A stretch of 64,000 nt of DNA from the IMG/VR virus record IMGVR_UViG_3300035210_000189, positions 1 to 64,000 of that record; one strand, written 5' to 3'. Positions 13,879 to 48,834 of the stretch are shown here, one piece after another (position 1 is the first letter of the stretch; every line of letters starts with the position of its first letter). This DNA is from a virus. The notes under the pieces were generated by a model. It had not been told where the DNA came from, searched no databases, and was given only the letters and a program-made list of their open reading frames with translations. Position numbers and translations under genes: made by a program.

Positions 13879-14673
13879 CTAAATACCTGCCATTTTTACA
13901 ACATGAAGGTTTTCAGATAATCCAGTATCAAATATGCCCTTGTTATAGGCTTCTTTCAACTCTTTGTAAAAAACCTCTAGTGTTTCGTTACTGTTTACTT
14001 GTTTCACACTGAAATAGGGATACATCGTCACAAATGCTTCTGATGATTTTAGGATATCGTTGATGTGAACATTGAAAAAATCATCAAATTCAGAAAGTTC
14101 AAAGCCATTATCAATGTCTAGTATTAATGATTCTTGATTTACACAGTCGAATAAGGCTAAGTGATCTTTCTTTTGAGCATCCTTGTAAAATACATATCGA
14201 ATTAGATAGCCTAATGTATCATTTTTATAAACATCAATGGGTCGATTTATAAAATAACCATCAAGTTCATTTTCCTCATCTAATGCAAATTGAAGATCAA
14301 AAAAATGACTTGAATTTGGAAAATTTAGATGATCAAAAACACCCGATTTTATTTCTAATTCAAGATCAACTTCAATAAAATTATTATTATCATCATAATC
14401 ATATAAGAATATTATATGTCCATCACTATCTTTTAATTTATATTTTGCATTTACTTGTTTATTTTTTCCAATAACATATTGATCGATTTTGATGTTTTCA
14501 AAATTAATAGTTGGATCATTTTTTTCATTAACTTGATTAAGCCAATGAATAATTCTATGTTTAAAATAGAAGATATGCTCTGGTAACATATCTGCAGTTG
14601 TTCGACGTTTATCTTTTAAAATAGAAAAGTCTGGTTTTAAATAATCAAATGTAACACTTTTATTAATTGTCAT
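13879..14673 (-). CDS. M-x-x-I C-terminal tag family protein, subfamily 1
   Basis: FDYLKPDF N-terminus shared with 14697 and 15502; ends VVKMAGI. Confidence 0.8.
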   Translation of the reverse strand: MTINKSVTFDYLKPDFSILKDKRRTTADMLPEHIFYFKHRIIHWLNQVNEKNDPTINFENIKIDQYVIGKNKQVNAKYKLKDSDGHIIFLYDYDDNNNFIEVDLELEIKSGVFDHLNFPNSSHFFDLQFALDEENELDGYFINRPIDVYKNDTLGYLIRYVFYKDAQKKDHLALFDCVNQESLILDIDNGFELSEFDDFFNVHINDILKSSEAFVTMYPYFSVKQVNSNETLEVFYKELKEAYNKGIFDTGLSENLHVVKMAGI

Positions 14674-14696
14674 TCTGCATTCCTGTTTATTTCTAG

Positions 14697-15485
14697 TTAA
14701 ATAGTCATCATCTTGATAATCGTAAGATTTTCATCGAAGCCTTTATTAAATACACCATCTTTATACATTTTTTTCATTTCGGCATAAAAAAGGTCAAGCG
14801 TTTCATTGTTGTTTACAAGACCCATACTAAATTGTGGATACATGTCGATGAACGTCTCTAATGATTGTAAAATAACATTTATATTTTTATTGAAAAAATC
14901 ATCAAAGTTTTCTACACTTTCAACCTCAGCATTAATAACCATGTTCTCATCTTTCGATTTGTAATCATACAGAATTAATAAATCTTTTGTTTTCTGTCCA
15001 TCAGCAGTAAACGAATACTTTACCATGAAATCGTCATATGAGGTATCTGACATGTCTAGTGAACGCTCTACAACATAATCGAGCATTTCATTGTGTGTAT
15101 TCATATCAGCAGTCACAGTAAAGAATTGACTGGTAGATGGAAACTTTAACTGATTGTTATAAATACCGACCTCAGTCGAAAAGCTTATATTTTTAAAAGT
15201 TCCAATTTTATCATAATTGAAGTGAAGGGTGCCAGCAAGATTTTTAAAACCATAGACGATTAGGGCAGTCCCTTTGTCACCTACCATATAACGTTCAATT
15301 TTTACCGCATCAAAATTGGTTTCTGGATCAAACGATTGATTCATTTGATTGAGCCAATGAACAATCCTATGTTTGAAATAAAATTGATATTCAGGTTGAA
15401 GATTAACCATAACGATTCTTCTACCTTTTAAAATAGAAAAGTCTGGTTTTAAATAATCGAATGTTACCGTTTCATCAGTTTTCAT
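14697..15485 (-). CDS. M-x-x-I C-terminal tag family protein, subfamily 1
   Basis: Tandem paralog; ends IIKMMTI. Confidence 0.8.
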   Translation of the reverse strand: MKTDETVTFDYLKPDFSILKGRRIVMVNLQPEYQFYFKHRIVHWLNQMNQSFDPETNFDAVKIERYMVGDKGTALIVYGFKNLAGTLHFNYDKIGTFKNISFSTEVGIYNNQLKFPSTSQFFTVTADMNTHNEMLDYVVERSLDMSDTSYDDFMVKYSFTADGQKTKDLLILYDYKSKDENMVINAEVESVENFDDFFNKNINVILQSLETFIDMYPQFSMGLVNNNETLDLFYAEMKKMYKDGVFNKGFDENLTIIKMMTI

Positions 15486-15501
15486 TTATTTTCCTTTTCA
15501 A

Positions 15502-16302
15502 TTAAATAGCAGCCATTCGAACAACTTCTAAATTGTTTTCTAAATTTACTAGAAGACCTTTGTCATGTAAATCTCTTAGCTCATCGTAAAAAATAGAGAA
15601 AGATTCACTGTTATTTATTTTTTTGATACTAAATGTTGGATTGAGTTCTAAAAATGTATTGGGTGACAAAAGAACAGTATCAATTATTGTGTTGAAAAAA
15701 ATGTCAAAACCATACGTGTTCTCGATGTTTTCTTTTTTTAATTTCAATAGATCAGTATCGAAACCCTTATTCATATCATCAACAATTAAAAATAGCATAT
15801 CTCTTAATTTGACACTATATCTATCAAAATCGTAATATATAGATAACGATAAATTATCAAGAGTCTCAACATTACGAGCTAATCTGTAACCATTAAACTC
15901 CATTTTATTATTTATTTTAATTGTTAATCGAAACAAACAATCATGGTCAGGATATTTTTCTTTATTTTTGTATACATTATGGAGAAAAACAAGCTCAGCT
16001 TCTTTAAATTTGTTCTCTTGATCGTAATCAATATAAATCGTACCTGCACCTGCTGGTGTATGGATATTTACAGAAAAATGATCACTGCCTCTTAAAGTAG
16101 TGTCTGCCACTGCTATGGTTTCAAAGTTAAATGCCATATCGGTGGATTCGTTTACTGCATTTAACCAATCAATAGTTTTATGAACTAAAAAGAACTGAAA
16201 TTCAGGTGGCACAAAAAATGTAACAGGCTCACCTTCTGTCTCTGTTTTAAAATCTGGATTTAAGAAATCAAATTTAAAACCCGATTCTTCTATTTTATTC
16301 AT
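15502..16302 (-). CDS. M-x-x-I C-terminal tag family protein, subfamily 1
   Basis: Tandem paralog; ends VVRMAAI. Confidence 0.8.
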   Translation of the reverse strand: MNKIEESGFKFDFLNPDFKTETEGEPVTFFVPPEFQFFLVHKTIDWLNAVNESTDMAFNFETIAVADTTLRGSDHFSVNIHTPAGAGTIYIDYDQENKFKEAELVFLHNVYKNKEKYPDHDCLFRLTIKINNKMEFNGYRLARNVETLDNLSLSIYYDFDRYSVKLRDMLFLIVDDMNKGFDTDLLKLKKENIENTYGFDIFFNTIIDTVLLSPNTFLELNPTFSIKKINNSESFSIFYDELRDLHDKGLLVNLENNLEVVRMAAI

Positions 16303-16305
16303 GAT

Positions 16306-16998
16306 TTATTGGACCTTTAAAACAAAATCGTTTGATTTAAAATCGCTAAAAAAATCATTGAAATTATTAGTATTCATGACGAGTTCGTATTTTTTATTCA
16401 GAATTGCTTTTGCTCTTTGTAAATTTTCAACACCTACTTTTACAAAGCTATTCATATCCAAATCAAGCGTAGCAATATAACCATTCTTGTTACCAAATGA
16501 AGCTTGGATTTGATAACCACCACCCGCTAATACCCAAATAGGTTCATCAGTTTTGGAGATTAAATGATTATGGATAGTCTTGATGCGTGCATGATAATGA
16601 GTGCTAAGTAGTTTAAAATGCTTGATAGCATGTTCAATACTGTTTTTATCCTTTTCCAATGCATAGCGGCCACGATCATCAAGTCCATATTGAATACCAT
16701 CATGATTGACCGCTACCATTGATTGAGTATGCCATGCAGACCCTTTGACGGGTTCGGCAATAATCCCAAAATCAGAGTAAGCCGCAATAATATATTCAAT
16801 TGGAGGTCTAGTAGAAATATAATACCCTAACTCAACCAATGTTTTACAGCCATTATCAGCTTGAAACTCTGCCCATTCATAATCACCCGCCATGAAACGG
16901 GCAAATAGGTTCTTTTGTTTATACGTTGCAACAGAAAGTTTGGCTTTCACGTTTTTAATTTCTTCTGGTGTTTCTGGATGTCTGTAATCATATTCCAT
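16306..16998 (-). CDS. Hypothetical protein
   Basis: 230-aa ORF, AAGGGG RBS. Confidence 0.75.
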   Translation of the reverse strand: MEYDYRHPETPEEIKNVKAKLSVATYKQKNLFARFMAGDYEWAEFQADNGCKTLVELGYYISTRPPIEYIIAAYSDFGIIAEPVKGSAWHTQSMVAVNHDGIQYGLDDRGRYALEKDKNSIEHAIKHFKLLSTHYHARIKTIHNHLISKTDEPIWVLAGGGYQIQASFGNKNGYIATLDLDMNSFVKVGVENLQRAKAILNKKYELVMNTNNFNDFFSDFKSNDFVLKVQ

Positions 16999-17035
16999 GA
17001 TATAACCCCTTTATTTAATGAGTTTTGTAAATTGA

Positions 17036-17515
17036 TTAAGCACCATCAAGATCTTCAAGCTCAGATTCATCATTAAGACTTTCTTCTAGTGATTGACGAA
17101 ACTTTGCCACCATCACATCAATGGCATCAGGGTTATTTTTGAAGTGGGCTTCGATACGTTCCATGTTGATTTCTTCATCACCTTTACGGTCATAAAACAA
17201 AATGTTGGAAACTGCTTGATCAACCAATCCGGTAACATCATCATCAGTGAGTGGAAATACTGCCAATGCATCATGCAGTTTGTGAGAGTGAGCGAATTCA
17301 TTAATCGACCTAATCACAAGCTCGCTACCATTTTCGACGTAGTAAGAATAAAGCATGGAAATCTCACTTTTATCTTTTTCAGATGTTACCAAAGCTAAGA
17401 CTTCTTGAATGAAAGATTCTCCATTTTTTTTCAAGTTACGTTTGATGAGGGTAGTGTCATACAGACCATCCAGAAATTCTTTCAAATCTTCAAAGCTCTT
17501 TTCAGTGGTAGTCAT
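17036..17515 (-). CDS. Hypothetical acidic protein
   Basis: AGGAG RBS; promoter-like TATAAT upstream. Confidence 0.75.
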   Translation of the reverse strand: MTTTEKSFEDLKEFLDGLYDTTLIKRNLKKNGESFIQEVLALVTSEKDKSEISMLYSYYVENGSELVIRSINEFAHSHKLHDALAVFPLTDDDVTGLVDQAVSNILFYDRKGDEEINMERIEAHFKNNPDAIDVMVAKFRQSLEESLNDESELEDLDGA

Positions 17516-17642
17516 GGTAAATCTCCTAAATAATTTCAGTGATTATAGCAGATTCTGCACAACTAGGCAAGGATAAAGAATGATTGACATATGCCGTCAA
17601 TTCCTTTAAAATAAGCACTCAATATTACTAGGATACTTAATA

Positions 17643-17972
17643 ATGTCTCAATTAATTAATCTCGCTCTGAAGGATACTTCTGATAATTTGGGTCGTTCAT
17701 CTTCTGCTCAATATCAAGTTAAGCATTATTTTGACAGCACGCTTCGAGGACTTCAAGAAGAATGTGTTACACTTAATAATGTTATTGCTATGCTCAAAGA
17801 GAATGAAACTGATAATGCCAAAGCATTGGATAAACTGAACAAAGCAGTAGATGTTAATCGTGCTCGTTATACTGAAACCATTAAGACGGCGGGGCAGATA
17901 GACGTTGCTATTGACTCACTTAACCGTGCTAGCACTTGGATTTCTGCTTTGGAAGTTGAATTGAAAGCTTAA
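17643..17972 (+). CDS. Hypothetical coiled-coil protein
   Basis: TTGACA promoter, AGGA RBS, heptad-like sequence. Confidence 0.7.
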   Translation: MSQLINLALKDTSDNLGRSSSAQYQVKHYFDSTLRGLQEECVTLNNVIAMLKENETDNAKALDKLNKAVDVNRARYTETIKTAGQIDVAIDSLNRASTWISALEVELKA

Positions 17973-17993
17973 CTTAAAAAATTGTAAACAAAT

Positions 17994-18018
17994 AAAAACC
18001 ATCCTAGGATGGTTTTTT
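17994..18018. terminator. Bidirectional intrinsic terminator
   Basis: A5-CCATC-CTAG-GATGG-T6. Confidence 0.8.
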
Positions 18019-18019
18019 G

Positions 18020-18826
18020 TTATTGTCTTATTGTAGTTTTTTGTCCAAATACATTGATGGTTGTTACAATTTCTTTTAAGCTTTCTGGTAGTGTTTTATT
18101 TTCTTCTATATTAGCAATAAGTTGTTTATATTCATATAACTCACGTCTAGTCACAAATTTATCTTTATAGATTTCATCAAACTTCGCTTTTGATTCAGGT
18201 TGCTTTGTGATTTCATTGACACTAATCAGACCAGTCAATAATGTGTTGGGTATACTGAGTAAGTTCTCTTTGTCTTTGATGTATTCTTGTAGTTTACTTT
18301 CGTCACTTGCCAATTTATCAGTAGATATTTGCTTGTATAGATCACTTTTACTATAATCTTGATGGCTGTTAATTTGAAGATATTTTGACAGATCTTTATA
18401 TCCTTTATTAATTTCATTTATTTTCTCAGTATTAAAAAACATCACTTGATAAAAAATTTGCATAATAATAAATAAAGAAACTGTGGCAATTGCAATTTTT
18501 TTGGATTTATTGGTCATGTCATCTAGGATAATTGAAAAAACACCCAATAACGTTAGCAATGTGCCAAATATTGTAGCCAAAATCAAAACATTAAAACTTT
18601 TTGCATCATTAATTTGATAACTATAATCCAATCCTGCAAAAGAAAGTACAACATCTTAGTACATTTTTGCAGTACAATAAAAACCAAATAAAAATAATAG
18701 GCTAGCAATAACAACTCGTTTTTGAGTTAATTTAAATGGTTTATTTTGTGTAGGTTCTACTACTTCCATTTTTTCTTTTGTACTCTCCATTTTTTTCGAC
18801 CTTACTGTTAATTTTACCTTTTCCAT
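18020..18826 (-). pseudogene. Membrane protein gene interrupted by one in-frame TAA
   Basis: ATG 18826 with AAGG RBS reads MEKVKL...AKMY-TAA(18658-18656)-DVVLSFAG and continues in frame into ORF 18631..18020. Confidence 0.65.
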
Positions 18827-18988
18827 TGTTTTAACCTTATTATTATACTAATAAGATTATTCCATGATGAATATAAAAGTCAAACCAAAATAATTCATTG
18901 TTTAAAAGAAAAAATATAATATCAACAACCAGTCAAAAAGTAAATTTTCATTTATTGAGACGAAAAAAAAGGAACTCTTTCAAGTTCC

Positions 18989-19381
18989 TTATTGTTGTGT
19001 TACTGATACATCCACTGATTCGCCGTAATACCCATTTGAAGACCCGAAGAATCGTAATACCACCAATCCTCTCTCAGTCGCCATTCGATAATAAGTCCAA
19101 GTGAAAGATTCTCCTTGATAACATGACGACCCAACAATCAAATCGCTGTTAGAAGTTTCCTCAGCCATAACGACAGTGTGTCCGATTAAATCATCAATGT
19201 CGCCAATGATCTCTTCCAAATACACATCCTCACAGCAATCTTGGTTATGATAGAACGTAAACACTAAACCACTTGTTGTACGCACTATAAACTCTTCATC
19301 GTTACGGTTACCGCTCACAGACTCGATAGTTTCACCCACCATTCTGTTCAATGTTGCATTTACTTCGTTTTGCATATTCAT
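18989..19381 (-). CDS. Conserved phage-type protein (YH.QDCCE.V / W..Y...T / SNGYY motifs)
   Basis: Motif set recognised from phage hypothetical proteins; AGGAG RBS. Confidence 0.75.
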   Translation of the reverse strand: MNMQNEVNATLNRMVGETIESVSGNRNDEEFIVRTTSGLVFTFYHNQDCCEDVYLEEIIGDIDDLIGHTVVMAEETSNSDLIVGSSCYQGESFTWTYYRMATERGLVVLRFFGSSNGYYGESVDVSVTQQ

Positions 19382-19732
19382 TAGTAATTCTCCTGTTGGT
19401 AATTAGTACCAAGCCACAAGAGTCATTTATTACTATTGAATGTCGCCATTCTATCATGTGATCCTTATTAAATCAAGACTATATTTAAAATAAATCTATT
19501 ATATGGCAATCTTTGAGCGATACGGTGTTCAGGCTTATAAGCAATAGCCTTATTATTCATGAATATCCGACCGTTGGATTGCTCATAAACCTTGCTATTT
19601 CACTGCATTTCATCTATAATTCCAACAGAATTGAGCGTGAGGTTATTGATGAAAAAACCGGCTTATTTCTAAAATTAAAGCTGATCTTGACAACTTTAAA
19701 ATATAAACTTAACTTATTTGGAGACATACACT

Positions 19733-20140
19733 ATGTATCAATCATTTCAAGACTTCATCAAGAAAACAGAAGAATCCCATGCGGCTATGGTCGCTACTGC
19801 TAATGAGAAACCAAGTTTGGAATCTTACCGTGATACAGTGGCTAAATTGCTAGGTCATGATGATGTTCATGCTCTGGAAGCTGCTTTGGATAACAACTAT
19901 CAACCCAGCTATGTATTGGTCTACATGTGGCAAGGTGTGACTGATACTATTCGCACCTATAAACCGACTGACGCTGGTAAAGAACAGATGTTGGAAGAGT
20001 TCTCTGAAAAGGTTAAAGATCGACTTGGTGTTCTTCCTGATGGTAGTTTATCAGATGAAGCACAGGCTCTGTTAGATGCAGCGATTGATGATATGTTTTA
20101 TGAAGATTCAAAAGTCACTATTACTTGTTACAAAGTTTAA
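19733..20140 (+). CDS. Hypothetical protein
   Basis: GGAG RBS before ATG 19733; TTGACA upstream. Confidence 0.75.
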   Translation: MYQSFQDFIKKTEESHAAMVATANEKPSLESYRDTVAKLLGHDDVHALEAALDNNYQPSYVLVYMWQGVTDTIRTYKPTDAGKEQMLEEFSEKVKDRLGVLPDGSLSDEAQALLDAAIDDMFYEDSKVTITCYKV

Positions 20141-20151
20141 ATCGTGTCAAC

Positions 20152-20179
20152 AAAAAAGCCATCTTTTGATGGCTTTTTT
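20152..20179. terminator. Bidirectional intrinsic terminator
   Basis: A6-GCCATC-TTTT-GATGGC-T6. Confidence 0.8.
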
Positions 20180-20192
20180 CTTTTAACGCTAC

Positions 20193-21375: not shown

Positions 21376-22287
21376 ATGAGAATCATTCAACATAACAAAC
21401 TATATGTTCCGCAATCTTTTACACACCGTTTATCTGACAATTTAATCGCATTTGTTGATGAGAATAGTAAAAGATTTTCTTTTGATAATGCCAATGTCTA
21501 TCATTTAAATAATAATAACTTAGTAGAATATAAAGATATTATTACATCAAGCATTAAGGCTAAATTAATAAAAAATCACAGAAGCACTGGATCGGATATG
21601 ATGAAGGATATCATTAAGGCGGTAAATGATTACTATGAGAATCTTCAAAATAAACTACCAACATCTATGATTGTTTTTGAACATGTTTATTCATCGTTAA
21701 CTGAAACGTCTATGTTATTTTTCAAAGAGCATCATGATATGTTGCTTATTGATACCACTACGTCTACTTTGGAGTTTGCTATAACTAAAAATATGTTTAG
21801 TTACCTTCCTCTTAATGATAATTATGTTGCGAGAGCTGTTACACAATCAGTTGGTTATGAAAGCTCCAGTACCAAAGGAGTTTTTCCTTTTACTACTTTT
21901 TTACTTCCTTTTAATGAAAATTCTTTTAAAATTGACTTTGAAAAATCTCAAACTAAAAGTCTTGAGTTACAAGTTAGAATACTTCAAGCAGGACAAGATA
22001 AGTTTGAAAATCTTAATATTTCAGATGATAAAATTTTAAATACTAGCCTCAAGAACATTGATATTGTTAATACTCGGTTACTTCATAATAACATTATTAT
22101 TTTTAATGAATATGCTCTTTCTGATTATAATGTTCGTGACCTTATTTCGTCATATTTGATGCCTTTCATTGATGATTTAAACTCTAAATATGAAATCATT
22201 GATGAAATTCCCGTGGCACTTACAAAAGAATATTATGACCATTTTAAAGCCAATATTAAGCCCGTTATTGACATGGCAATCTGCTAA
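21376..22287 (+). CDS. Hypothetical protein with variant C-terminal tag
   Basis: Ends PVIDMAIC. Confidence 0.75.
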   Translation: MRIIQHNKLYVPQSFTHRLSDNLIAFVDENSKRFSFDNANVYHLNNNNLVEYKDIITSSIKAKLIKNHRSTGSDMMKDIIKAVNDYYENLQNKLPTSMIVFEHVYSSLTETSMLFFKEHHDMLLIDTTTSTLEFAITKNMFSYLPLNDNYVARAVTQSVGYESSSTKGVFPFTTFLLPFNENSFKIDFEKSQTKSLELQVRILQAGQDKFENLNISDDKILNTSLKNIDIVNTRLLHNNIIIFNEYALSDYNVRDLISSYLMPFIDDLNSKYEIIDEIPVALTKEYYDHFKANIKPVIDMAIC

Positions 22288-23477: not shown

Positions 23478-24161
23478 TTGTCCAAATTTTTGGAGATCTA
23501 TTCAATGCCTAGTCCAGATAGAATTGCTCAGGTAACTGTAGTGGCTAATATGAGCCAGCTTGATAAAATTGAGCGGTTGACGACTACAATTAAAAAATTC
23601 TATGATATTGATGTGTCGGATGTAAAATTGGTTAAGAATCAAACAACCCATTACACTGCTAATACGTCACTTGGCCGTGCTCGCATCTATGTCTATTCAC
23701 AATGTATTGATATTAAATTCACTTCAACCGTTGCTTTTGATGGTCAACAACTTACCTTAAAAAAATCAACGAGTGTCATTCAATCTATTTTTGATGACAT
23801 CAATAAACGAACAGTTATTTTTCATGCAGTAAAATTAAAAAATGGACAGAATAAAGACCTTCATTTTTATGAGAATACAAAGTTTAGTATCAAAATAGTA
23901 GTGAGATTTCTTGCCACTAATCCACAACTGTATTTTAAAGCAACACCCTATTCGAAATATTCTTTCTTTAACTACATGAATGAAACTGCTCGTTCTGGTT
24001 ATAATAAAACGCTTGAATTGTATTATCTGAAAGATGAATTTGATTCCATCACGGGTGTTGACCAAGCTTTTTCATTTATAAAAGATTATTTTAAAGGCCG
24101 AAACCTTACATTAGAGGATGCAAAACGTTTAGGTGACTTACATGACATGGTTAAAATATGA
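23478..24161 (+). CDS. M-x-x-I C-terminal tag family protein, subfamily 2
   Basis: Ends KRLGDLHDMVKI; start uncertain. Confidence 0.75.
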   Translation: MSKFLEIYSMPSPDRIAQVTVVANMSQLDKIERLTTTIKKFYDIDVSDVKLVKNQTTHYTANTSLGRARIYVYSQCIDIKFTSTVAFDGQQLTLKKSTSVIQSIFDDINKRTVIFHAVKLKNGQNKDLHFYENTKFSIKIVVRFLATNPQLYFKATPYSKYSFFNYMNETARSGYNKTLELYYLKDEFDSITGVDQAFSFIKDYFKGRNLTLEDAKRLGDLHDMVKI

Positions 24162-24805
24162 ACGGCTACCACGAACCTGATCCCATCCATCTTGCCAGTA
24201 TTGAAACTGCACGGAAAATTCTGTTCACTAAATTTGGCATTGATTTTACTAATGTGACTCGTGAAAGCCACGGCGACTATGTGGCTTCTGGTGCATATTC
24301 TGTTGATATTTATGCTCTAAATCATACGGATCTCTACATTGGCTTTAAAACTTTAATCCATCTTGAAAATGGCCTTTTAGTTTCGAAACTCAACGATCCA
24401 ATGATAAATGACTTTGTAAAAGACATGAACTCTTTCTTTTATATTTTCGACGCCTTACGTTTTACAACATGGGATCAAGACGTATTCTATCCTATTTTAG
24501 ACAATATCAGACCTTCTATTATTTTCAAATATAATATTGAGTGTGATGATATGATGATTCATATTGATTTACACCCCACTATTGAATCAGAAGAGTCTAT
24601 TTACATCACAACAAAAGATATCATTATTCAACATGGTTATGAACCGGCTGGTTTTAAAGCCATCTATCATTTAAATGGTTCGCACTATCTCAGTGATTTG
24701 TTGACTTACAAAACTAGACTTTTAAAAGTTTGGAATATTGATGAAAATAGTAGTGATATTGACTATAAACGTCTTGGTGTTTTAACTGACATGATTACAA
24801 TTTGA
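24158..24805 (+). CDS. M-x-x-I C-terminal tag family protein, subfamily 2
   Basis: Ends DYKRLGVLTDMITI; paralog of 24817. Confidence 0.8.
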   Translation: MNGYHEPDPIHLASIETARKILFTKFGIDFTNVTRESHGDYVASGAYSVDIYALNHTDLYIGFKTLIHLENGLLVSKLNDPMINDFVKDMNSFFYIFDALRFTTWDQDVFYPILDNIRPSIIFKYNIECDDMMIHIDLHPTIESEESIYITTKDIIIQHGYEPAGFKAIYHLNGSHYLSDLLTYKTRLLKVWNIDENSSDIDYKRLGVLTDMITI

Positions 24806-24816: not shown

Positions 24817-25464
24817 ATGAATACTATTGAAAATAAAAAACCAATAATTGAACATATTAAAGATGGTAATTCATTAATTTTTGATTATCTTGGTATTTCC
24901 ATCACTGATATTAGACCAAATGGCACTTCTCAATATATTGCTGATTGTGATTATGGCGATATTGTGACTATATGGGCTTCTATTTTAGGTGATATTTGGT
25001 TTACTTTTGATAATGTACTTCAACTTAGTAACGAAACATTAACTACACAGACTAGTTCACCACTTATTCAAGTTATTTTGAAAAATATCAATGATTCTCT
25101 CTATGTTTTAGATGGTTTGCGACTAACAAATGATAATATATTGTATTTTACTGTTTTGTCTAAACTGTCACCTAACCTTGTTGTTAGGTATAGTCAAAAA
25201 ACTAAGCATACATCTGTTGAGATTAGATTCCAGATTACTGAACAGGCTATTAACTCATATCATTTCACAACAAAGCAAACAAGCATTCAACATGTCAATG
25301 AATGTGAAGGTTTCACATTTGTTTACTCTATTTCTGGTGATTTATTGAAAAATGACCTTGAAAAATATTGTTCACGAATGCTTGATGTTTGGGAAATTAC
25401 TGAAGATAAAAAAAATGTTGATTATAAAAAATTAGGTATCTTGTCTGACATGCTTACTATTTGA
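24817..25464 (+). CDS. M-x-x-I C-terminal tag family protein, subfamily 2
   Basis: Ends DYKKLGILSDMLTI. Confidence 0.8.
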   Translation: MNTIENKKPIIEHIKDGNSLIFDYLGISITDIRPNGTSQYIADCDYGDIVTIWASILGDIWFTFDNVLQLSNETLTTQTSSPLIQVILKNINDSLYVLDGLRLTNDNILYFTVLSKLSPNLVVRYSQKTKHTSVEIRFQITEQAINSYHFTTKQTSIQHVNECEGFTFVYSISGDLLKNDLEKYCSRMLDVWEITEDKKNVDYKKLGILSDMLTI

Positions 25465-33097: not shown

Positions 33098-33121
33098 AAA
33101 AAAGCCCGTGAGGGCTTTTTT
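33098..33121. terminator. Bidirectional intrinsic terminator
   Basis: A6-GCCC-GTGA-GGGC-T5. Confidence 0.8.
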
Positions 33122-34628
33122 ACTTATAAGGTAAGCATATATAGGCTGAAACGTCCCATTGTGTGTATTGGAAGGCTTGTCCACTTAGGAAGCCAAAAGA
33201 TCCCGCTTCACAAGAACAATTACCCGTATAAGGGTTTGCCACTCTGCAACCACCACCAAAGGTATTTAACCAATAAGCTCCACCTACTGTTGGTGAACCA
33301 CTTGGTTTCCATTGATAACCTTGGCAAGAGAATATTTTACCCGTGCTATCGGTACCAATTAAACCTATTTTTGCACAAGAACCGTTGCTGACAACTTTCT
33401 TTGTTGAATCGAAAAATTCGTTCGTTGTAATTCTTGAGTCAACTGTCAAATCACCTACCATATGGCTTTTTCCACCCACATCTAAGCTATTTTTAACCTT
33501 AATATCAGTTGTCGTCGTCAAGCCAGCAACATCTAAATCTTTTTTAACGTTTAAGAAGTTAGTATTGATTTGTTCAGATACGACATCGGTTGCATAAATA
33601 TTTCTAATGGTTCCATTATCTGCAGTGATTCCATTGGTGAGTTGATAAATGGTATTGGTACCGTCTAATTTTACCATTCCACATGGAGCTTTTTCACCAC
33701 TGTCTACTATTTGAGCACCATTATATTTGTAAACAATACACAACTTGTCTAAGAGTATTTCTTTTTGTGTTGTATAGTCTACTGCTACGTCTACCGTCAC
33801 TGGATAGCCAGTTTCTTTATGAATACCTACACCACAATCTACTACTCTTGATTCCCATTTAGCTGCATCGTCTACTTTAACCCACTTTACACATTGTTTG
33901 TTAGCTGATGTTCTTGTGTCTTTAAAGGTGACTGCAGATCCAACCATTGAGTTTTTTCCATCAATTCTTAAAAATTCAGCTCCACCACTTCTGTAGTATT
34001 CCGCAATGATTACACAGGCTGAACCTAACGTATAACATTTTGTTGAAGTAATCTTAGTATCAGGAGCAGCAGCATCCGCAAAATAAAAATTGTTAGATCC
34101 TGTTGTGCCTTCTTTGTTATTGTGTCTGGCTGACATTAACATCTTGTTAAGGTAGGGAAAGAGTTCTTTGAAACTGGCATCATTATCAAGTTTTAACATC
34201 ATTCTGAATGAGTTAACAAATCCTTCTGAATCAGTGCCTATTACCGCTTCTGGCTTGAAGCTGTACGGTATTCTTGCCCACAATCCACAGTCGATTAATT
34301 TAGCATCTTTTTCAGTGGCTAATTGTGGAACCCACCCGGAACCCTTACCACAATTGGCTGTTCTTGATATTAACTCTTTGGTTAATAAATCTTGTATGTT
34401 TGAATTATTCCATGTTGTACCATTTTTGAAGTTTGAGACATCTAAACCATCTATGCTTAGTCTTTTATCAAAGCCTTCTACAATTGATGATAATTCTTTG
34501 CCATATTGAACTGCGAATTGGTTTCTTTGTGCTTCCATCATCCAGTAAAAGATTCCTGTCACTATGACTAGGAGTATCGAAAGAGTCATTAACGTTTCAA
34601 ACAATGAAAGTCCTTTATTTTTTCTCAT
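33120..34628 (-). CDS. pilV: PilV-like type IV pilus minor pilin / tip adhesin
   Basis: Class III signal MRKNKG|LSLFETLM plus hydrophobic helix; GLIGTDSTGKIFSCQGYQWK resembles the PilV constant-end motif; Cys-rich tip NPYTGNCSC. Confidence 0.7.
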   Translation of the reverse strand: MRKNKGLSLFETLMTLSILLVIVTGIFYWMMEAQRNQFAVQYGKELSSIVEGFDKRLSIDGLDVSNFKNGTTWNNSNIQDLLTKELISRTANCGKGSGWVPQLATEKDAKLIDCGLWARIPYSFKPEAVIGTDSEGFVNSFRMMLKLDNDASFKELFPYLNKMLMSARHNNKEGTTGSNNFYFADAAAPDTKITSTKCYTLGSACVIIAEYYRSGGAEFLRIDGKNSMVGSAVTFKDTRTSANKQCVKWVKVDDAAKWESRVVDCGVGIHKETGYPVTVDVAVDYTTQKEILLDKLCIVYKYNGAQIVDSGEKAPCGMVKLDGTNTIYQLTNGITADNGTIRNIYATDVVSEQINTNFLNVKKDLDVAGLTTTTDIKVKNSLDVGGKSHMVGDLTVDSRITTNEFFDSTKKVVSNGSCAKIGLIGTDSTGKIFSCQGYQWKPSGSPTVGGAYWLNTFGGGCRVANPYTGNCSCEAGSFGFLSGQAFQYTQWDVSAYICLPYK

Positions 34629-34858
34629 ATTAAAATCCATTATTGTTATTTTCAATATTAAAATATTGATCTTATCTTTTAAATATAACATACAATAATA
34701 GATAATAAAGATTGTATTAGATTTTTTATTTTGGTTCTTTTTAGTGGTTATATTTAGACATTTACATATGATGATATTTCGTTTTTTTATTCATTAAAAT
34801 ATAGACAATTCTTCAATAAAATGCTATCATAATCCTTTAATTTCTAGGAATTTTACAC

Positions 34859-40374: not shown

Positions 40375-40375
40375 T

Positions 40376-41906: not shown

Positions 41907-42338
41907 ATGCATAATATTGTAGCGTCCAAACTTATTAATGACCTTATACTGAACACTGATGACAGTAGCCATCTTATTCTCGATGAAATCAAAAAAAACC
42001 AAAGCCTTGTTGGTGTTCGTCAACTCTTGATTGAAATTGATACAGATGATGATTTTGCCGTTGATGGTTCATCTGATTTTTCGAAAACATTTGATTTGGG
42101 TGAACGTGATATTGTTGAAGTCTACAAAGAAGCTATTAAGAGTATCAAGTTTGGGCATGATAACGTCAAAAATTATAAGGTCGATAATTTCTTGGAATAT
42201 ATCTTGTCAGAAGACGCATTGAATGAAGTGGCTACTGGTCATCTTTCAACAGGCGGTAATCAGACAATTTATGTCACCGTTGTCGATGCTCCTAGAAATA
42301 TGTATATTGGTTCATTAGTTATTGATTTGACCCGATAA
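41907..42338 (+). CDS. Hypothetical acidic protein
   Basis: GGAG RBS before ATG 41907. Confidence 0.7.
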   Translation: MHNIVASKLINDLILNTDDSSHLILDEIKKNQSLVGVRQLLIEIDTDDDFAVDGSSDFSKTFDLGERDIVEVYKEAIKSIKFGHDNVKNYKVDNFLEYILSEDALNEVATGHLSTGGNQTIYVTVVDAPRNMYIGSLVIDLTR

Positions 42339-42395
42339 TGCTTTCATTATTCATTCAGTTGTGATAAAATAGGCCCACTTGAGGGCTTATTTTTT

Positions 42396-43043
42396 ATGAG
42401 AAAACCAATTAATGTCAATACTATTGAGGAACTGAAAGCAGTTGCATTTGATTATAATGCTCCTGTTTTCGTTGCTCCTGAGCTTTTGATGAATGAAATC
42501 ATTGAGACTGATGAAGAATGTGATAAACTCTTGGCTAACTTATCCCATTATCATAAAAGTGTCATCGCCTTCTTTTTCAGATGTGAAGGATTTAGGGTTT
42601 ATTTTTTGGTGATTGATAGCTTTGTTGTCGTAAAAAACTATGTTCTTGATAATGTAACGATTGCTAATTTGAAAAAATTTGTCATTCAATCCGTTCGCTT
42701 TGATTCAGGCAGTCACCAGTGGAATGAAAAACAATTTTATTCTTACAAACGTGGAAATAAACCTGACAGTGTGGAACGCAGTTACGGTTCTTTTATTGCT
42801 AGGTATAGCCATGTTTATGATAAAACCTATGTGAGCCAAATTAGAGTCACTGATCAATCACAATACCTTATTGACATGACCTTTAAACGCAATGGTCGGC
42901 AAATCACATTGATTGAACTGTCAGCAGACTATCCAGAAATTGCATCCGCTTTGAGAGGTAAAGTTCGGTCAATTGAAAACCTTACAAACAAAAGCAAATT
43001 GATTAAATCTTATCTACCTATTATTGATATGATTCTTATTTAA
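42396..43043 (+). CDS. M-x-x-I C-terminal tag family protein, subfamily 3
   Basis: INVNTIEELK start like 43053; ends PIIDMILI. Confidence 0.75.
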   Translation: MRKPINVNTIEELKAVAFDYNAPVFVAPELLMNEIIETDEECDKLLANLSHYHKSVIAFFFRCEGFRVYFLVIDSFVVVKNYVLDNVTIANLKKFVIQSVRFDSGSHQWNEKQFYSYKRGNKPDSVERSYGSFIARYSHVYDKTYVSQIRVTDQSQYLIDMTFKRNGRQITLIELSADYPEIASALRGKVRSIENLTNKSKLIKSYLPIIDMILI

Positions 43044-43052
43044 GGAATAACC

Positions 43053-43682
43053 ATGCTATTAATCAATACCATTGACCAATTAAAAGAATGTTTGTTATCA
43101 GTTGAGCAAACTGGACGATTTGTCACACCTGTTAAAGAATTCGTTAAGGCTGGTCAGATTATTAAACCCGAGAACCGAAATGAATATATTTACGTTCTGG
43201 ATGATCTTCATACTATTTATTTTCAATTGAGTGAAGATCTTATTGTCTTCAAAGGGTTTCAGATTAAGCCAGAAAAACACTATATTTTCCATAGACTAGA
43301 TAACCTTCCATGCTCTCTATTTTATCTTAAAAATGGTAATTTAAACACTACAAGTTGGTATGTGAATGGTATTGCTGTTCGTGACAATCCTATGCAACCT
43401 GTCGTCGTAGATCGTCGTGATGGTGATTTCTGGACGTTTCAGTATGCAACCTCAGATGATGGTTGCTTTGAGATGTCTCATATTATCTATGACAAGCGTA
43501 AGAAAGGTGAATGGCGTGTCATGGACATGTTGGCTAGGCGTCGTGGACAAAACATGAATTTTAAAGAGATTAAAAAACAATTTCCTTTTGTTGAAGATAT
43601 TACATTTGAGGATTGTTATGATCTTAGTAAAAACATCTTTACTGCAGATCAAGTGACATTGATGAGAATGATTGATATTTGA
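43053..43682 (+). CDS. M-x-x-I C-terminal tag family protein, subfamily 3, with HR.D..P-type beta repeat
   Basis: HRLDNLPC..Y.KNG....WYVNG..RD.P; ends TLMRMIDI. Confidence 0.75.
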   Translation: MLLINTIDQLKECLLSVEQTGRFVTPVKEFVKAGQIIKPENRNEYIYVLDDLHTIYFQLSEDLIVFKGFQIKPEKHYIFHRLDNLPCSLFYLKNGNLNTTSWYVNGIAVRDNPMQPVVVDRRDGDFWTFQYATSDDGCFEMSHIIYDKRKKGEWRVMDMLARRRGQNMNFKEIKKQFPFVEDITFEDCYDLSKNIFTADQVTLMRMIDI

Positions 43683-43790
43683 AATCGGCAATATAATACT
43701 GCTTAATATTAAAAGATGGCACCTAATCGGCATTATATTGCAGATTTAGGTGCTTTTTTGTATTCTTTTATGCAATATAATGCAGTTTGA

Positions 43791-44603
43791 TTAAATTTCG
43801 ATCATTTCAATCAGTTTTAAGTAATCCATAAAAGCCACTTTGTTATCACCATTAAAATTATCATAAAATGACTTATTGACCACTTTAAACCAATTGTTAT
43901 CTTCCAAGTCAATATTTTTAGGATCGAAGAAGCTTGAATCTACTTCTTCTTTTACATTCATGACGTGTTTAGTAAATCTTAACAACATTAGTTCTGATGC
44001 AACATCACCATTAGAGTTGAGTGAGTAACTTGTAGCATTAGATTTAACTATATTTTTCAATTCAAATGTCTTACGGCAAATTTTATGATTTTTGTCAAAG
44101 AAATATGTCATGCTCGACATCTTTCTTAAATGCAACAAGATCACCCAGTGTTTCTGCTTGATGGCATAGGCTGAACCGTAGTAATCTTTTTGTAGATGAA
44201 ATTCTAATTCATTACCTTCTTTATTGAAATGATTTAAGTTCAGATGATTGATTAATGTTGATTCGAATGATTCACCCTTATACAGAGCACTGTAATGCGT
44301 TTGTTGACCTTTTTCATTATAATACACATAAATAGGCAACTCAAACTCACAGTTAAACAATTCAAATAAGTTAAATTTAAAGGTAATGACAATGCAATCA
44401 CTTGATTTTCCAGATACATAAAAAGAGGTTTCGTCTTTTACCAAATCAAGATGTTCTTTAATTAACTCTTTGGTTAAATTTGGATTATTGTTAATTGCTA
44501 TTAATTTTTCACACATCATGGCACGAACAATTTCAAAGTGCTTGTCTTTGAGCTTATTATTCTTAGATAACTCTTCAAAATTTGGAAAGTATAATTTCAT
44601 CAT
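43791..44603 (-). CDS. M-x-x-I C-terminal tag family protein, subfamily 4
   Basis: FPNFEELS N-terminus; paralog of 44619; ends KLIEMIEI. Confidence 0.8.
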   Translation of the reverse strand: MMKLYFPNFEELSKNNKLKDKHFEIVRAMMCEKLIAINNNPNLTKELIKEHLDLVKDETSFYVSGKSSDCIVITFKFNLFELFNCEFELPIYVYYNEKGQQTHYSALYKGESFESTLINHLNLNHFNKEGNELEFHLQKDYYGSAYAIKQKHWVILLHLRKMSSMTYFFDKNHKICRKTFELKNIVKSNATSYSLNSNGDVASELMLLRFTKHVMNVKEEVDSSFFDPKNIDLEDNNWFKVVNKSFYDNFNGDNKVAFMDYLKLIEMIEI

Positions 44604-44618
44604 TCACCCTGTATTTTG

Positions 44619-45410
44619 TTAAATTGCTATCATGTCTATTACATTCATATAATCCAAGAATGCAGTGCGTTTGTCACCTGTTAAGCTTCTGAAAAAGTGT
44701 TTATGAACTTCCCGCATCCATTCTGATTGGGTGAAATCTATATCTTTGTAATTAATAAATGATGAATCAACAGAATCTCTTTCATTTGTGACATGTTTTA
44801 CGAACTTTAAAAACATAAGTTCAGTTTCAAATTTCTCAAAACCTTCCATTGAATAATTAGAACTTGAATTATTAATTTTTGATTCAAAACCACGCAAATA
44901 AACCTTATGCTCAGTGTCAAAACGATATTTTAAAGTAGTCCTTATTTTTGGATATTCTGGTGTTTTTATATAATTTTCTTTGATGATTTCATATACAGTT
45001 TTATTGTTTGCATCTTCATCTAATGAAAACTCTAATTTAGACAAATCGTCATTAAAATGATTAATATTTAAAAGATTCATTAAACTTAAATCATTTTTTG
45101 ATCCCATATATGTTGAATGCCATCTATTGTATTTTCCATGTTGATTAAAATATAAATGTACAGGTATTACAATATAACAATCGAAAAAATTAACAGCAAA
45201 GTTAACTGTACAGTAATCCTTAGTATTATAAAATTTGGTAGTTGTTCCATAAATCCCAAGGTTACTTTGAATATCTTCATCTGTGATATTTGGGTTATTA
45301 TTCATTTTTACGAATTTTTCATACAATAATTCCCACACCTTACCTTCTTGGTCTTTCGCAAGGTTTGGGTTGCTTGATAATTCTTCGTAATTTGGAAATG
45401 AAAGATACAT
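44619..45410 (-). CDS. M-x-x-I C-terminal tag family protein, subfamily 4
   Basis: FPNYEELS; ends NVIDMIAI. Confidence 0.8.
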   Translation of the reverse strand: MYLSFPNYEELSSNPNLAKDQEGKVWELLYEKFVKMNNNPNITDEDIQSNLGIYGTTTKFYNTKDYCTVNFAVNFFDCYIVIPVHLYFNQHGKYNRWHSTYMGSKNDLSLMNLLNINHFNDDLSKLEFSLDEDANNKTVYEIIKENYIKTPEYPKIRTTLKYRFDTEHKVYLRGFESKINNSSSNYSMEGFEKFETELMFLKFVKHVTNERDSVDSSFINYKDIDFTQSEWMREVHKHFFRSLTGDKRTAFLDYMNVIDMIAI

Positions 45411-45554
45411 TTAACATCCTCAATTTATATATCTTTTGATTATACCTTATTTTGTTGTTTTAGTCTATGATTTTGCCTATTAAATGTTCATAAAAAAGAC
45501 ATAATTTTATTGATTTTATTTTTAAAATATGTTAAAATACTTGCTCTTTAAGAG

Positions 45555-45998
45555 GTGATTTTTATGGAGTTAGATATTAAAGTTTTGAGAGAATTAGGCC
45601 CGCATGTCGGCCAAAAAGTTTGGATTTGTGATTATCGTCAACCTGACTTGGATAAGAAAGCTATCCGCCATGTCCCGCCAACAGAAGTTATTATTGTTTC
45701 GAACGAAGAAAACAAGCCAACTAAGCCTATTCATTACTCAGATACCCATTTTAGAACTTTGACAAAAACGGGTGAAGCAGGCAGTAAAGTGATTGGTATT
45801 TTCGACAATACAGGTTATCGGTTTAATACAGGCACAGCTTTGCATGTTTTCGACAATAAGGAAGAATGTGTTGAGTTTTATAACGATCAAGCTGATAAAA
45901 TTATTTCAGCACTTGATGACAAGATCAGTTGGGTTGTGGTAGGATTGAACAATGCTAAAAAAGAAGTCCTCGATAACAAGCTGAAATCAAGGAAATAA
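45555..45998 (+). CDS. Hypothetical protein (phage-type)
   Basis: GAGGTG RBS; VWICDYR and FDNTGYR motifs. Confidence 0.75.
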   Translation: MIFMELDIKVLRELGPHVGQKVWICDYRQPDLDKKAIRHVPPTEVIIVSNEENKPTKPIHYSDTHFRTLTKTGEAGSKVIGIFDNTGYRFNTGTALHVFDNKEECVEFYNDQADKIISALDDKISWVVVGLNNAKKEVLDNKLKSRK

Positions 45999-46005
45999 CA
46001 ATATC

Positions 46006-46377
46006 ATGGATGGCTTCGGTCATCCTTTTCTTTCGGAGAGCCACCTGATGATTAATTTTCTGTTCAAAAAAGTGATTGTTGTGGAATATGAACATAGTAT
46101 CAGTATTTATGATACCTTTGAAAAAGTAACCAATAATGATGCCCTTTTACCCTATGTGAACAAAAATATGACGCTTAAAAATGGAGTCTCTTCCATCAAA
46201 GCTGATTTGCACACTGGTGCTGAATATCATTATCCTGTTACTATTTATGCAGCTCACCGTTTTAATTTCTTGCACCTGAGTGACGCCGCTTCTTGTGCCT
46301 ATCATCAATTTAAATCTATTTTGACACGTTCTTCGTGTGATTGGGACAGCTTTTCGGCTTACTCTTTCAAAAAATAA
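46006..46377 (+). CDS. Hypothetical protein
   Basis: ORF; true start probably ATG ~46048 after GGAG. Confidence 0.55.
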   Translation: MDGFGHPFLSESHLMINFLFKKVIVVEYEHSISIYDTFEKVTNNDALLPYVNKNMTLKNGVSSIKADLHTGAEYHYPVTIYAAHRFNFLHLSDAASCAYHQFKSILTRSSCDWDSFSAYSFKK

Positions 46378-46411
46378 TATATCTTTAATTTTTTAAAATG
46401 AGGTATTTGAC

Positions 46412-46855
46412 ATGCGTATTGAAAACCAGAATCCTGATACATTTGAAAGAATTCTTTTAGCAGTTATGGGGGTAGCTATGATTGCGTTGGCATTCCTTTT
46501 TTTGAGTTTGTTTATTTTTGAGGTGCCATCTTCAGAAACAACTTATAATGTTCGGAAAGACATCTTTACAATCAATCGAGCATTTGATCAAAATTCCAAC
46601 ACATGGGTGGTTGGCGTCATGGATGCTGATAATATCAAACTGGGATCATTTGTTTGTGCATCAAAACCTATGAATGCGAATCCTGAACTTTACTATAAAA
46701 TGACTAGAGAAGACATGTTCTTTGGACCTTCTAAATACGCTTTTTCTTTTAGTTATGTGGAAAACTGTACAAGTGTGAGTGGTTCATCGGCTATAACGCA
46801 AATGCCAAACGTGCAAAATAGAACGCCACGTAAAAAAGGCGAATTCATACTGTAG
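46412..46855 (+). CDS. Membrane-anchored protein
   Basis: N-terminal TM helix; GAGGT RBS. Confidence 0.7.
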   Translation: MRIENQNPDTFERILLAVMGVAMIALAFLFLSLFIFEVPSSETTYNVRKDIFTINRAFDQNSNTWVVGVMDADNIKLGSFVCASKPMNANPELYYKMTREDMFFGPSKYAFSFSYVENCTSVSGSSAITQMPNVQNRTPRKKGEFIL

Positions 46856-46915
46856 TGGTTGATTTTTTCTTATTTTATGATATAATGACCTTCTTAATTT
46901 AAAGAGGTCATTATC

Positions 46916-47395
46916 ATGGGTGTTACCTTCCAAGCTCAAATCAATCACGATGATTACCCACAACAGAAGGTGTTCATGGCTGATCTTTATCCTGATTTGG
47001 ATGAAGAGTATTTCAAGCTTGAAGGTTATTGCCCATTTGATGAAGAAACTCAACGCCATTACCAGATGGAGCGTGTCATTGACTTCAAACAAAGTCGTGA
47101 TTTCAGCTACGCTAATTTCTACTTGTTATTGGATCTGGTAGATCGTAATATCCGTATTGCCACACAAGCTGATGGTGGCTACTATGCTATCAATCATGCT
47201 GATATTCAAGTGTTCCGTAAGAAAGTCTTCATGGCCTTGAATAAGGTCAACGAAGGCCATGCTGTTGAGCCATCACAAAATGGAAACTTCTATGATTGTG
47301 GTGCATCTATGGATTATATTCATGGTGCTCTCAGTGATATGCTTGAAATCATTGATCAGGCATATAAGAAAAACTTAAATATTTTTTGGGCTTAA
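46916..47395 (+). CDS. Hypothetical protein
   Basis: GAGGT RBS; TGATATAAT promoter. Confidence 0.75.
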   Translation: MGVTFQAQINHDDYPQQKVFMADLYPDLDEEYFKLEGYCPFDEETQRHYQMERVIDFKQSRDFSYANFYLLLDLVDRNIRIATQADGGYYAINHADIQVFRKKVFMALNKVNEGHAVEPSQNGNFYDCGASMDYIHGALSDMLEIIDQAYKKNLNIFWA

Positions 47396-47397
47396 TT

Positions 47398-47745
47398 ATG
47401 ATCAATTCAAAACAAGTCTTTAAAGCAGGATTATGCAGTGTCTTCGGAGCTGCGACATTCTCACTCTTCTTCTGGAATAGTTACATGCTTTCCACAGGTC
47501 GGTTTATGGTCTGGAAAGCTTTTGAAGGGGATTCTCATTTCCTCATGTTCGCTTTATTCCTTATGCCATTACTGATTGGTTTTACAGCCGGATTTGGTAT
47601 GATTTTTTACTCGTTTCGTCTAGAAAGTAAAGAAGCTGACAAAAGAATGCAAGATCGAATCGCGGACAGAGACAAGCAATTAGAAGATACCACATTAACC
47701 AGTCTAGAAAGAATTGATATAATTCTAGGCAACCACCGAACTTAA
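47398..47745 (+). CDS. Small membrane protein
   Basis: Two hydrophobic helices. Confidence 0.65.
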   Translation: MINSKQVFKAGLCSVFGAATFSLFFWNSYMLSTGRFMVWKAFEGDSHFLMFALFLMPLLIGFTAGFGMIFYSFRLESKEADKRMQDRIADRDKQLEDTTLTSLERIDIILGNHRT

Positions 47746-47766
47746 CCAGCCTATGGGAGTCCTCAT

Positions 47767-48150
47767 ATGACAATAGCTCAGAAAGACAATGAAAGTTTTG
47801 TTAACGCTATACGTTCAATGACTGAAAAGTTTATTGCTCTGGTTGAATCCCATTCAGTATCCAAAGATTTTTCTTGGTTTACATTTCGTGATGATACCCT
47901 TTTGACCGCAATTCAGCATTCTTTTGGTGAATTGACCCAAGAAGAACTGCAAGACTATCATCTTGTATTTAATCAAGTTATGGTTGAGCATGGCTATAGC
48001 ATCACTTCCGTAAATCATCTTGACGATAAAGTCGAATTATGGCATAATACACCTTCATTAAATATGGAACTTCACGAATATCTTGGCATTGCTTGGGGTG
48101 ATTATCATCATTTTATGTTTGGTCGTGATGTTTATTTGAAAAATAACTGA
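47767..48150 (+). CDS. Hypothetical protein
   Basis: GGGAG RBS; WH......LHEYLG..W..Y motif. Confidence 0.75.
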   Translation: MTIAQKDNESFVNAIRSMTEKFIALVESHSVSKDFSWFTFRDDTLLTAIQHSFGELTQEELQDYHLVFNQVMVEHGYSITSVNHLDDKVELWHNTPSLNMELHEYLGIAWGDYHHFMFGRDVYLKNN

Positions 48151-48210
48151 ACTAGCTGTTTCGCTGGGTCAGGGGTTTTATAATTTCAACTCTTAGTTAC
48201 GGATCAAGAT

Positions 48211-48834
48211 ATGAATGTCAATTCGGCTGAAACAGATAGCTTTAAAGAACTGTTTACTGTGTTCGCTAAGGAACACGATATAATGGTGGGGCGTTATTGT
48301 GCCGTAAAACTTCTCAGTTTCTACAATCATAATTTTGATCCTGTTATGCTCTTCCAGCTTGATGCTGATGTCGTTGCACCCTTGGTTTTAAAACCTTTTA
48401 AACATTTTCATGTAAAAAAGTTGGTCACACGATTAACCGATTTTTTGAGTGAAGTCGTTGAAGATAGTTTAGAGGGGTTTCTTGCTGCCAACTTCTTTGA
48501 TCAATTCACCCTTCACAATATTCAAAATATTGTCTTGAAAGAAGGTTATACCAGTGTTCATGATGTGGCTTATTATCAATTAGAATTGCTCAGCACATCC
48601 ACCCGACTTATGGTGAATTTTCATACTGAACCTGTTCAGCCTAGATTTTACAGAAATACAGAAATGAAGGGAACTATTAAATATCTCAATCTGGATGTTT
48701 ATTATCGAGATTTTGAATCACTCAGAGAACCCATGTTGGAACATTATGCTGATGAAATTGGTAAATTTCTCAATATTCCAGTGAATGAAATTGATGATAA
48801 TGTTTTAAAACTTGTTGAAATGGTTAAAATCTAG
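48211..48834 (+). CDS. M-x-x-I C-terminal tag family protein, singleton
   Basis: Ends DDNVLKLVEMVKI-TAG. Confidence 0.75.
   Translation: MNVNSAETDSFKELFTVFAKEHDIMVGRYCAVKLLSFYNHNFDPVMLFQLDADVVAPLVLKPFKHFHVKKLVTRLTDFLSEVVEDSLEGFLAANFFDQFTLHNIQNIVLKEGYTSVHDVAYYQLELLSTSTRLMVNFHTEPVQPRFYRNTEMKGTIKYLNLDVYYRDFESLREPMLEHYADEIGKFLNIPVNEIDDNVLKLVEMVKI

Follow-up and report, generated by a model that had tools for sequence, protein, structure and literature searches.

A selected C-terminal helix end on about one protein in six of an AT-rich megabase element, tentatively read as a docking handle

The stretch of DNA analysed here (the window) is the first 64 kb of the 152,440-bp IMG/VR record IMGVR_UViG_3300035210_000189, which has a GC content of 34%, and it contains a set of genes for dissimilar orphan proteins that end in one and the same C-terminal tail. 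The first-pass annotation had listed twelve open reading frames (ORFs) whose products close on an aliphatic residue at position -7, a charged residue at -5, Met at -4, a hydrophobic residue at -3 and, in all but one, Ile at -1. Translation of each ORF gave the claimed tail in 12 of the 12 (Table 1), and the lengths of 207-303 aa, the presence of these carriers on both strands and the absence of hydrophobic leaders were all borne out. The ORFs exist as listed, but for the seven on the + strand the position quoted is the start of the ORF, and the tail lies at the right end, as in the ORF at 21376-22287 with its tail at 22264-22284. The sorting of the proteins into about six groups needs a small revision, as BLAST places the 12 carriers in seven (F07 and F04 with three members each, F03 with two, and F10, F11, F12 and F13 with one each). 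Across three records, BLAST gives about 24 carrier families, of which these are seven; their members are 170-416 aa long and often stand in tandem arrays.

Tagged C-termini are strongly enriched beyond chance when the whole record, its relatives and control genomes are compared, a check of the kind that the first-pass annotation had proposed. Two forms of the pattern were used: a loose one, M-x-x-[ILVCY]-stop, and a strict motif, which is the seven-residue form. The loose pattern ends 38-39 of the 236 ORF-genes of the 152,440-bp record, and in the element about one protein in six (about 16-20% of proteins) is tagged. Met occupies -4 in 43 of the 236 ORF-genes where 7 would be expected (binomial P=3e-21), and among the 44,689 residues of the record the strict motif occurs 18 times at a terminus and 3 times internally; residues added past the tag are very rare among the carriers. 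The tails are kept in three related IMG/VR records, in which 19% of genes are tagged as against about 1% in control DNA. Two of these records, taken over their full length, have 55/292 and 53/275 tagged genes, nine distinct loci on other megabase contigs together have 46/228, and control loci from GTDB genomes have 3/241; in 41 kb of the deposited huge phage LR756508 (484 kb), which is the nearest by RNA ligase, 0/61 genes are tagged. Some candidates were set aside. All 35 matches to a degenerate DNA pattern of the F01 tail in GTDB species genomes were due to chance, an RRF ending in ...KEIMAI has its Met at -3 and was taken as a normal RRF C-terminus, and an RNA_ligase protein (L043:4165-4911, tail SYMGKI) was judged a chance match to the loose pattern, as the end of its ortholog differs. 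Literature searches found no description of the tag or of anything that reads it.

The codons of the tail vary (for Ile, ATT, ATA and ATC are all in use, Leu has a mixture of codons, and each of the three stops occurs), so that the earlier conclusion that the constraint acts on the protein holds. In same-family pairs with less than 60% body identity, which are diverged paralogs with a mean body identity of 27%, the residue at -4 is identical in 94%, that at -7 in 75% and that at -1 in 71%, and the least conserved tail position, -2, is identical in only 20%. Among 74 ortholog pairs, synonymous and nonsynonymous changes numbered 28 and 7 at -7, 15 and 8 at -1, 14 and 34 at -2, and 0 and 0 at -4, where Met was unchanged throughout. 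On the basis of these paralog identities and ortholog substitution counts, the protein is under purifying selection at -7, -4 and -1, and the exact position of the end is under purifying selection too. A cause at the level of DNA, namely an overlapping start or the Shine-Dalgarno sequence of the next gene, was rejected for the shared positions, given that the carriers occupy both strands and that their spacing and codons vary. In the F01 array, the tail codons for Gln-Ala (CAGGCN) set an AGG about 9-11 nt ahead of the ATG of the next gene, and a Shine-Dalgarno role may explain this F01-specific pair of residues. In most families, a cap that is acidic or Ser/Thr precedes the tag near -11/-12, and positions -9/-10 and -6 are hydrophobic, so that what is conserved amounts to a helix about 12 residues long. 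Its consensus, with h for a hydrophobic residue, is D-x-h-h-x-[LV]-h-[DE]-M-h-x-I-COOH, which corresponds to the last two to three helix turns.

At the level of sequence, the bodies in front of this helix end are mutually unalignable, as had been claimed by eye, although two of the families share a predicted architecture, to which we return below. Profile-profile comparison (hhalign) of the whole proteins and of the C-terminal 90 residues found the families unrelated apart from F09-F17, and after trimming of the last 12 residues none of 243 of the 253 family pairs reached 40% probability except this same pair. Pfam, PHROG and PADLOC, applied to 10 of the 12 window proteins, 104 proteins from relatives and 46 from other genome positions, assigned a domain to 0 of about 150 true carriers, whereas at least 18/150 and at least 27/129 untagged neighbours (at least 45/279 together) have clear domains. 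The F03 profile found only 27 matches in 1.84 billion representatives; most of them retain Met-4/Ile-1, and a few distant members depart from this tail. No match to the F03 protein was obtained in the phage and plasmid collections, the ESM Atlas look-up gave no usable match, and profile searches of PDB sequences found nothing. F05 (9/9 members) and F19 have 2-4 predicted membrane segments, after which come about 90 C-terminal residues with the tag at their end, and the other families look soluble. The tag thus closes both soluble and membrane families, which means that the constraint does not depend on a single body plan.

AlphaFold models are available for two of the approximately 24 families, F01 and F03 (window 43794-44603), with a predicted local distance difference test (pLDDT) of 91 each (90.8 for F03) and a predicted template modelling score (pTM) of 0.86. 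Both models have the same order of elements, which is a short helix, an 18-residue helix, a short helix, 8-9 antiparallel strands and C-terminal helices; in the F03 model, there are helices at 9-51, nine strands at 60-195 and further helices at 201-216, 238-250 and 255-269. The last helix (226-258 in F01, 255-269 in F03; pLDDT 83-95) terminates in the tag, which in these models appears as part of an ordered helix, not as a loose peptide. The secondary-structure strings of the two proteins align with z=3.8 over shuffled element orders, ten of the top 50 weak structural matches are shared, and the N-terminal halves have weak cystatin/NTF2-like matches in common. Judging from the models, F01 and F03 very likely share one fold in spite of having no detectable sequence similarity, and because of this common helix/sheet/helix architecture part of the carrier repertoire is probably one hyperdivergent superfamily. 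Structure prediction has therefore moved part of the way, for two families, toward the picture that the first-pass annotation had named as the one that would count against it, in which the carriers are homologs with the tail in the core of the fold.

This is also the picture drawn by a purely structural explanation, according to which one ancestral domain family has diverged and its C-terminal helix would be a keystone against the sheet and the N-terminal helix, with no reader involved. The element order common to F01 and F03, the confident placement of the tag in their predicted terminal helix and the weak matches of their N-terminal halves fit such an explanation, as do an N-terminal helix pattern common to several families by eye (h-x-x-h-h-x-x-h-[YF]-x-h-D) and the fact that all carriers are orphans of similar size, often in tandem. 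Nevertheless, the shared architecture comes from two modelled families of about 24, and three observations speak against packing alone. The other core positions have fully diverged while Met-4 is 94-100% fixed, and packing usually tolerates Leu or Ile in place of Met; ragged C-termini do not occur; and the same end-helix closes F05 and F19, two polytopic membrane families whose N-terminal body is of another kind. We infer that an invariant Met, at a place where the core otherwise varies among L, I, V and F, would be unusual for packing alone. For these reasons we rank the structural explanation, which remains a serious but doubtful one, below the reading that a shared partner recognises the tail. 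Another way of doing without an external reader would be self-assembly, in which carrier tails bind each other or grooves of the carriers and build mixed rings, lattices or condensates. We regard it as improbable, since there is no positive evidence for it and the high monomer pTM suggests that the helix is satisfied within one chain; a complex prediction for two F03 copies gave a score of 0.00 and no verdict, and was used neither for nor against.

The reading that we favour, although we hold it at slightly less than even confidence, is that the helix end, together with its free carboxylate, serves as the common interface for one shared partner, and hence as a docking handle on variable bodies. 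It is favoured because Met-4 and the exact end are fixed while the bodies drift, because the end is never ragged and because membrane proteins of another build share it. According to this proposal, the tag closes a very large and fast-evolving orphan repertoire of a clade of AT-rich megabase extrachromosomal elements, and much of the soluble repertoire is probably one hyperdivergent superfamily, in which an N-terminal helix packs on a cystatin-like sheet and is followed by a second sheet and, at the C-terminus, by a helical cap. The bodies have drifted past recognition while Leu/Val-7, Met-4, Ile-1 and the stop position are held across all families, and one external reader would dock on the end-helix of soluble and membrane carriers alike. 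The earlier notion of a variable body with a constant tail gains from the unalignable bodies, the selection that acts on the tail itself across families, the exact end position and the membrane carriers. As for the shared docking partner that it had postulated, the pattern fits one shared external constraint, but no partner was identified.

Several points weigh against a docking handle. Met stands at -4 in 22/22 families, but this count is partly circular, as the family set was picked by a pattern that demands Met at this position. The final 10-residue blocks of the two monomer models have pLDDT values of 83 and 90, and the tagged helix is hydrophobic over about two thirds of its circumference; as far as the models go, such confident placement and hydrophobicity would be no less expected of a helix that belongs to the protein's own core than of a handle on its surface. 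Only orphan proteins carry the tag, with no enzyme of known function among them, and they are therefore unlike what a freely portable label would be expected to show. The gap in annotation between carriers and untagged neighbours is what descent from one ancestral family predicts, and the ordered hydrophobic helix together with the restriction to orphans keeps the structural rival alive. Finally, no clamp, coupling protein or obvious peptide-binding hub was found in the four fragments searched, which would make up about a tenth of a 1.9-Mb replicon. Nevertheless, a handle and a single superfamily are compatible with each other, as the conserved helix of the superfamily could be the docking surface.

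The closest known motif is the C-terminus of RB69 gp43, ...KKASLFDMFDF-stop, which shares with the tag the L(-7), D(-5) and M(-4), the hydrophobic residues at -3 and -1, the 3-residue spacing and the free carboxylate end, and differs from it in the final residue, which is Phe there and Ile here. In the T4 family, gp43, gp55 and gp33 end in hydrophobic and acidic epitopes that bind the clamp, can stand in for one another and are attached via divergent, flexible linkers (PMC2988020). The likeness extends to this whole group, where one hydrophobic and acidic motif at the extreme C-terminus is common to otherwise unrelated proteins, and the tag might be taken for a T4/RB69-type client tail that tethers the carriers to the sliding clamp of the element or of the host. 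We consider this very improbable because of the number of carriers, the membrane proteins among them and the lack of a flexible linker. The T4 clients are three in number and all are components of DNA or RNA polymerases, whereas the tag is found on dozens to hundreds of orphans, and these include polytopic membrane proteins that would be unable to track on DNA. In addition, no carrier has a DNA-metabolism domain or another known domain, the tag continues a long helix that is confidently modelled instead of following a flexible linker, and PF02916, the gp45-type clamp, had no real match in the four fragments, which are a small part of the replicon.

Table 1. Tail carriers and other features of the window and of related loci (window positions unless another source is given)
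Feature	Position	Strand	Length	Tail or remark
Carrier F07	13879..14673	-	264 aa	VVKMAGI, 13882-13902
Carrier F07	14697..15485	-	262 aa	IIKMMTI, 14700-14720
Carrier F07	15502..16302	-	266 aa	VVRMAAI, 15505-15525
Carrier F11	21376..22287	+	303 aa	VIDMAIC, 22264-22284
Carrier F04	23478..24161	+	227 aa, counted from TTG	LHDMVKI, 24138-24158; translation may really begin at an ATG 27 nt after the TTG
Carrier F04	24158..24805	+	215 aa	LTDMITI, 24782-24802
Carrier F04	24817..25464	+	215 aa	LSDMLTI, 25441-25461
Carrier F12	42396..43043	+	215 aa	IIDMILI, 43020-43040
Carrier F13	43053..43682	+	209 aa	LMRMIDI, 43659-43679
Carrier F03	43791..44603	-	270 aa	LIEMIEI, 43794-43814
Carrier F03	44619..45410	-	263 aa	VIDMIAI, 44622-44642
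Carrier F10	48211..48834	+	207 aa	LVEMVKI, 48811-48831
Carrier F02 (13th carrier)	63368..64000	+	219 aa	LAKMMII, record 64004-64024; runs past the window edge
Protein with N-terminal domain matching phrog_2155	3867-6224	-	785 aa	domain of about 140 aa, common to this and the next protein
Protein with N-terminal domain matching phrog_2155	7570-10461	-	963 aa	same domain
Prepilin-like protein	33120-34691	-	523 aa	prepilin methylation motif at the N-terminus and end of a shufflon (PilV) constant region, both matches under Pfam cut-offs
Rnl2-type RNA ligase	48915-50000	+		with PHA02142 OB domain; adjoins the carrier at 48211
F05/F19 carrier locus	L001:12583-14695 (record 75583-77698)			
F05/F19 carrier locus	L025:17626-18252			
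F05/F19 carrier locus	L043:4925-5671			
F01 array	record 134788-146556 (L005:1788-13556)			thirteen tandem paralogs, outside the window; an RRF gene stands ahead of the array, and a SIR2-domain gene (L005:10442-11257) interrupts it

IMG/VR labels these records proviruses, and CheckV estimates them as 50-59% complete. One close relative (G001) lies at about 0.99-1.18 Mb of the 1,917,244-bp JGI contig Ga0370506_000001, and past its 'provirus' edge (Ga0370506_000001:1168697-1189437) the same gene style continues with further tagged arrays. One window protein has a further record on a contig of 834,842 bp, and F02 homologs occur at four sites of a 1,859,102-bp contig, spread between 1 kb and 1.36 Mb, as well as on contigs of 1,539,155, 604,313, 520,353 and 437,043 bp. 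The untagged genes include those for RRF, GatA/GatB, several aminoacyl-tRNA synthetases, PTH2, SIR2, GNATs, Lgt, signal peptidase, M48/LemA, TnpB, two RNA ligases and the shufflon-type prepilin-like protein. Of the 35 Pfam families found in 150 untagged proteins, the 25 commonest include no capsid, portal, terminase or tail genes, and the only phage-like structural match is phrog_2155 ('virion structural protein', also in cyanophage S-CAM1), which matches a domain of the two large proteins at the left of the window (Table 1). The C-terminus of the longer of these two resembles Ig-like/invasin-domain proteins of Pseudomonas megaplasmids. Besides the ligase of the window, the records encode a ligase of the T4 Rnl1 type and a second, short protein with an RNA-ligase domain (phrog_34045, L043:4165-4911). 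At about 11.2-14.1 kb of each of the related loci L091, L093 and L097, neighbouring GatA-like (amidase) and GatB genes stand amid tagged arrays, and class I and II aminoacyl-tRNA synthetases, PTH2, an M17 aminopeptidase, a glutamate synthase and five R2K ATP-grasp proteins are also encoded amid such arrays of related megabase contigs.

In such features the element resembles pMEGA-type megaplasmids more than it does a tailed phage. The pMEGAs reach 1.58 Mb, have very low GC (26% in pMEGA4) and about 80% hypothetical proteins, and carry up to 208 tRNAs, runs of 2-11 tandem paralogs, genes for NAD and acetylation functions, and multicopy shufflon/pilin-like and TnpB genes (Guitor et al., bioRxiv 10.1101/2025.09.30.679422). 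They also encode Vir/Dot/Icm-like type IV secretion system (T4SS) parts, a coupling protein and several copies of FtsH and HflK/C, and their prevalent expansions are alpha- and beta-solenoids; the word 'C-terminal' appears nowhere in the text of that paper (bioRxiv 10.1101/2025.09.30.679422). Megabase size, low GC, hypothetical genes, tandem families, shufflon/pilin-like and TnpB genes, many tRNAs, and NAD and acetylation genes are shared by the two. Differences lie in the GC content of 28-35% and the contigs of up to 1.92 Mb of the clade described here, and in the solenoids that prevail among the pMEGA expansions. The resemblance is one of described features.

With such a gene content in mind, the tag could be a C-terminal signal for T4SS-mediated or conjugative translocation into recipients or prey, or else a degron for an AAA+ protease, both of which would be special cases of a shared reader. 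The secretion parts, coupling protein and protease genes of the pMEGAs, the prepilin-like protein of the window and the position of the tag at a free end, which by analogy such signals require, all lean in this direction. We nevertheless think it unlikely, as known T4SS signals and degrons are disordered and loosely conserved while the tag has fixed residues and is, in the models, an ordered helix, PF02534 (type IV coupling protein) had no match in the four fragments, and the comparison with pMEGAs is by features. The specificity of degrons of the ssrA, MuA and FtsH type resides in the last 2-3 residues, and in the tag -2 is the least conserved position.

Known C-terminal address tags with a single receptor include the ssrA and MuA degrons of ClpX, non-polar FtsH tails, peroxisomal targeting signal 1 (PTS1, SKL-COOH), encapsulin cargo peptides, and the Dot/Icm and type I secretion system (T1SS) signals. 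T4SS signals and the FtsH and ClpX degrons are C-terminal and require a free end, and FtsH has both soluble and membrane substrates. The tag would be analogous to these in being a short end peptide on many different proteins that needs a free terminus and is kept by selection at the protein level. The known address tags, however, are disordered, mostly 3-10 residues long or loosely conserved, and sit on proteins of many known functions, whereas the tag described here is an ordered helix of about 12 residues confined to lineage-specific orphan families. As an extension of the docking handle, which we hold still more tentatively, the tag might be an address label on the scale of a proteome, by which one reader, supplied by the element or by its host, acts on several hundred fast-evolving orphan proteins. 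Through this label, the reader might recruit an interchangeable arsenal, export it in conjugation or degrade it on schedule, and this would be, by analogy, a prokaryotic counterpart of PTS1/F-box adaptor logic.

The finding has consequences under either of the two leading explanations. If the tail is only the keystone of one fold, it would unite about two dozen seemingly 'unrelated' orphan families into one superfamily, which has no clear match among solved or predicted structures. If one partner reads the tail, a single peptide would open about a sixth of the otherwise unannotatable proteome of these megabase elements, and the tag would be usable as a classifier for their dark protein repertoire. 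The tag could also serve to mark the elements themselves, which virus-detection pipelines now cut into 'proviruses'.

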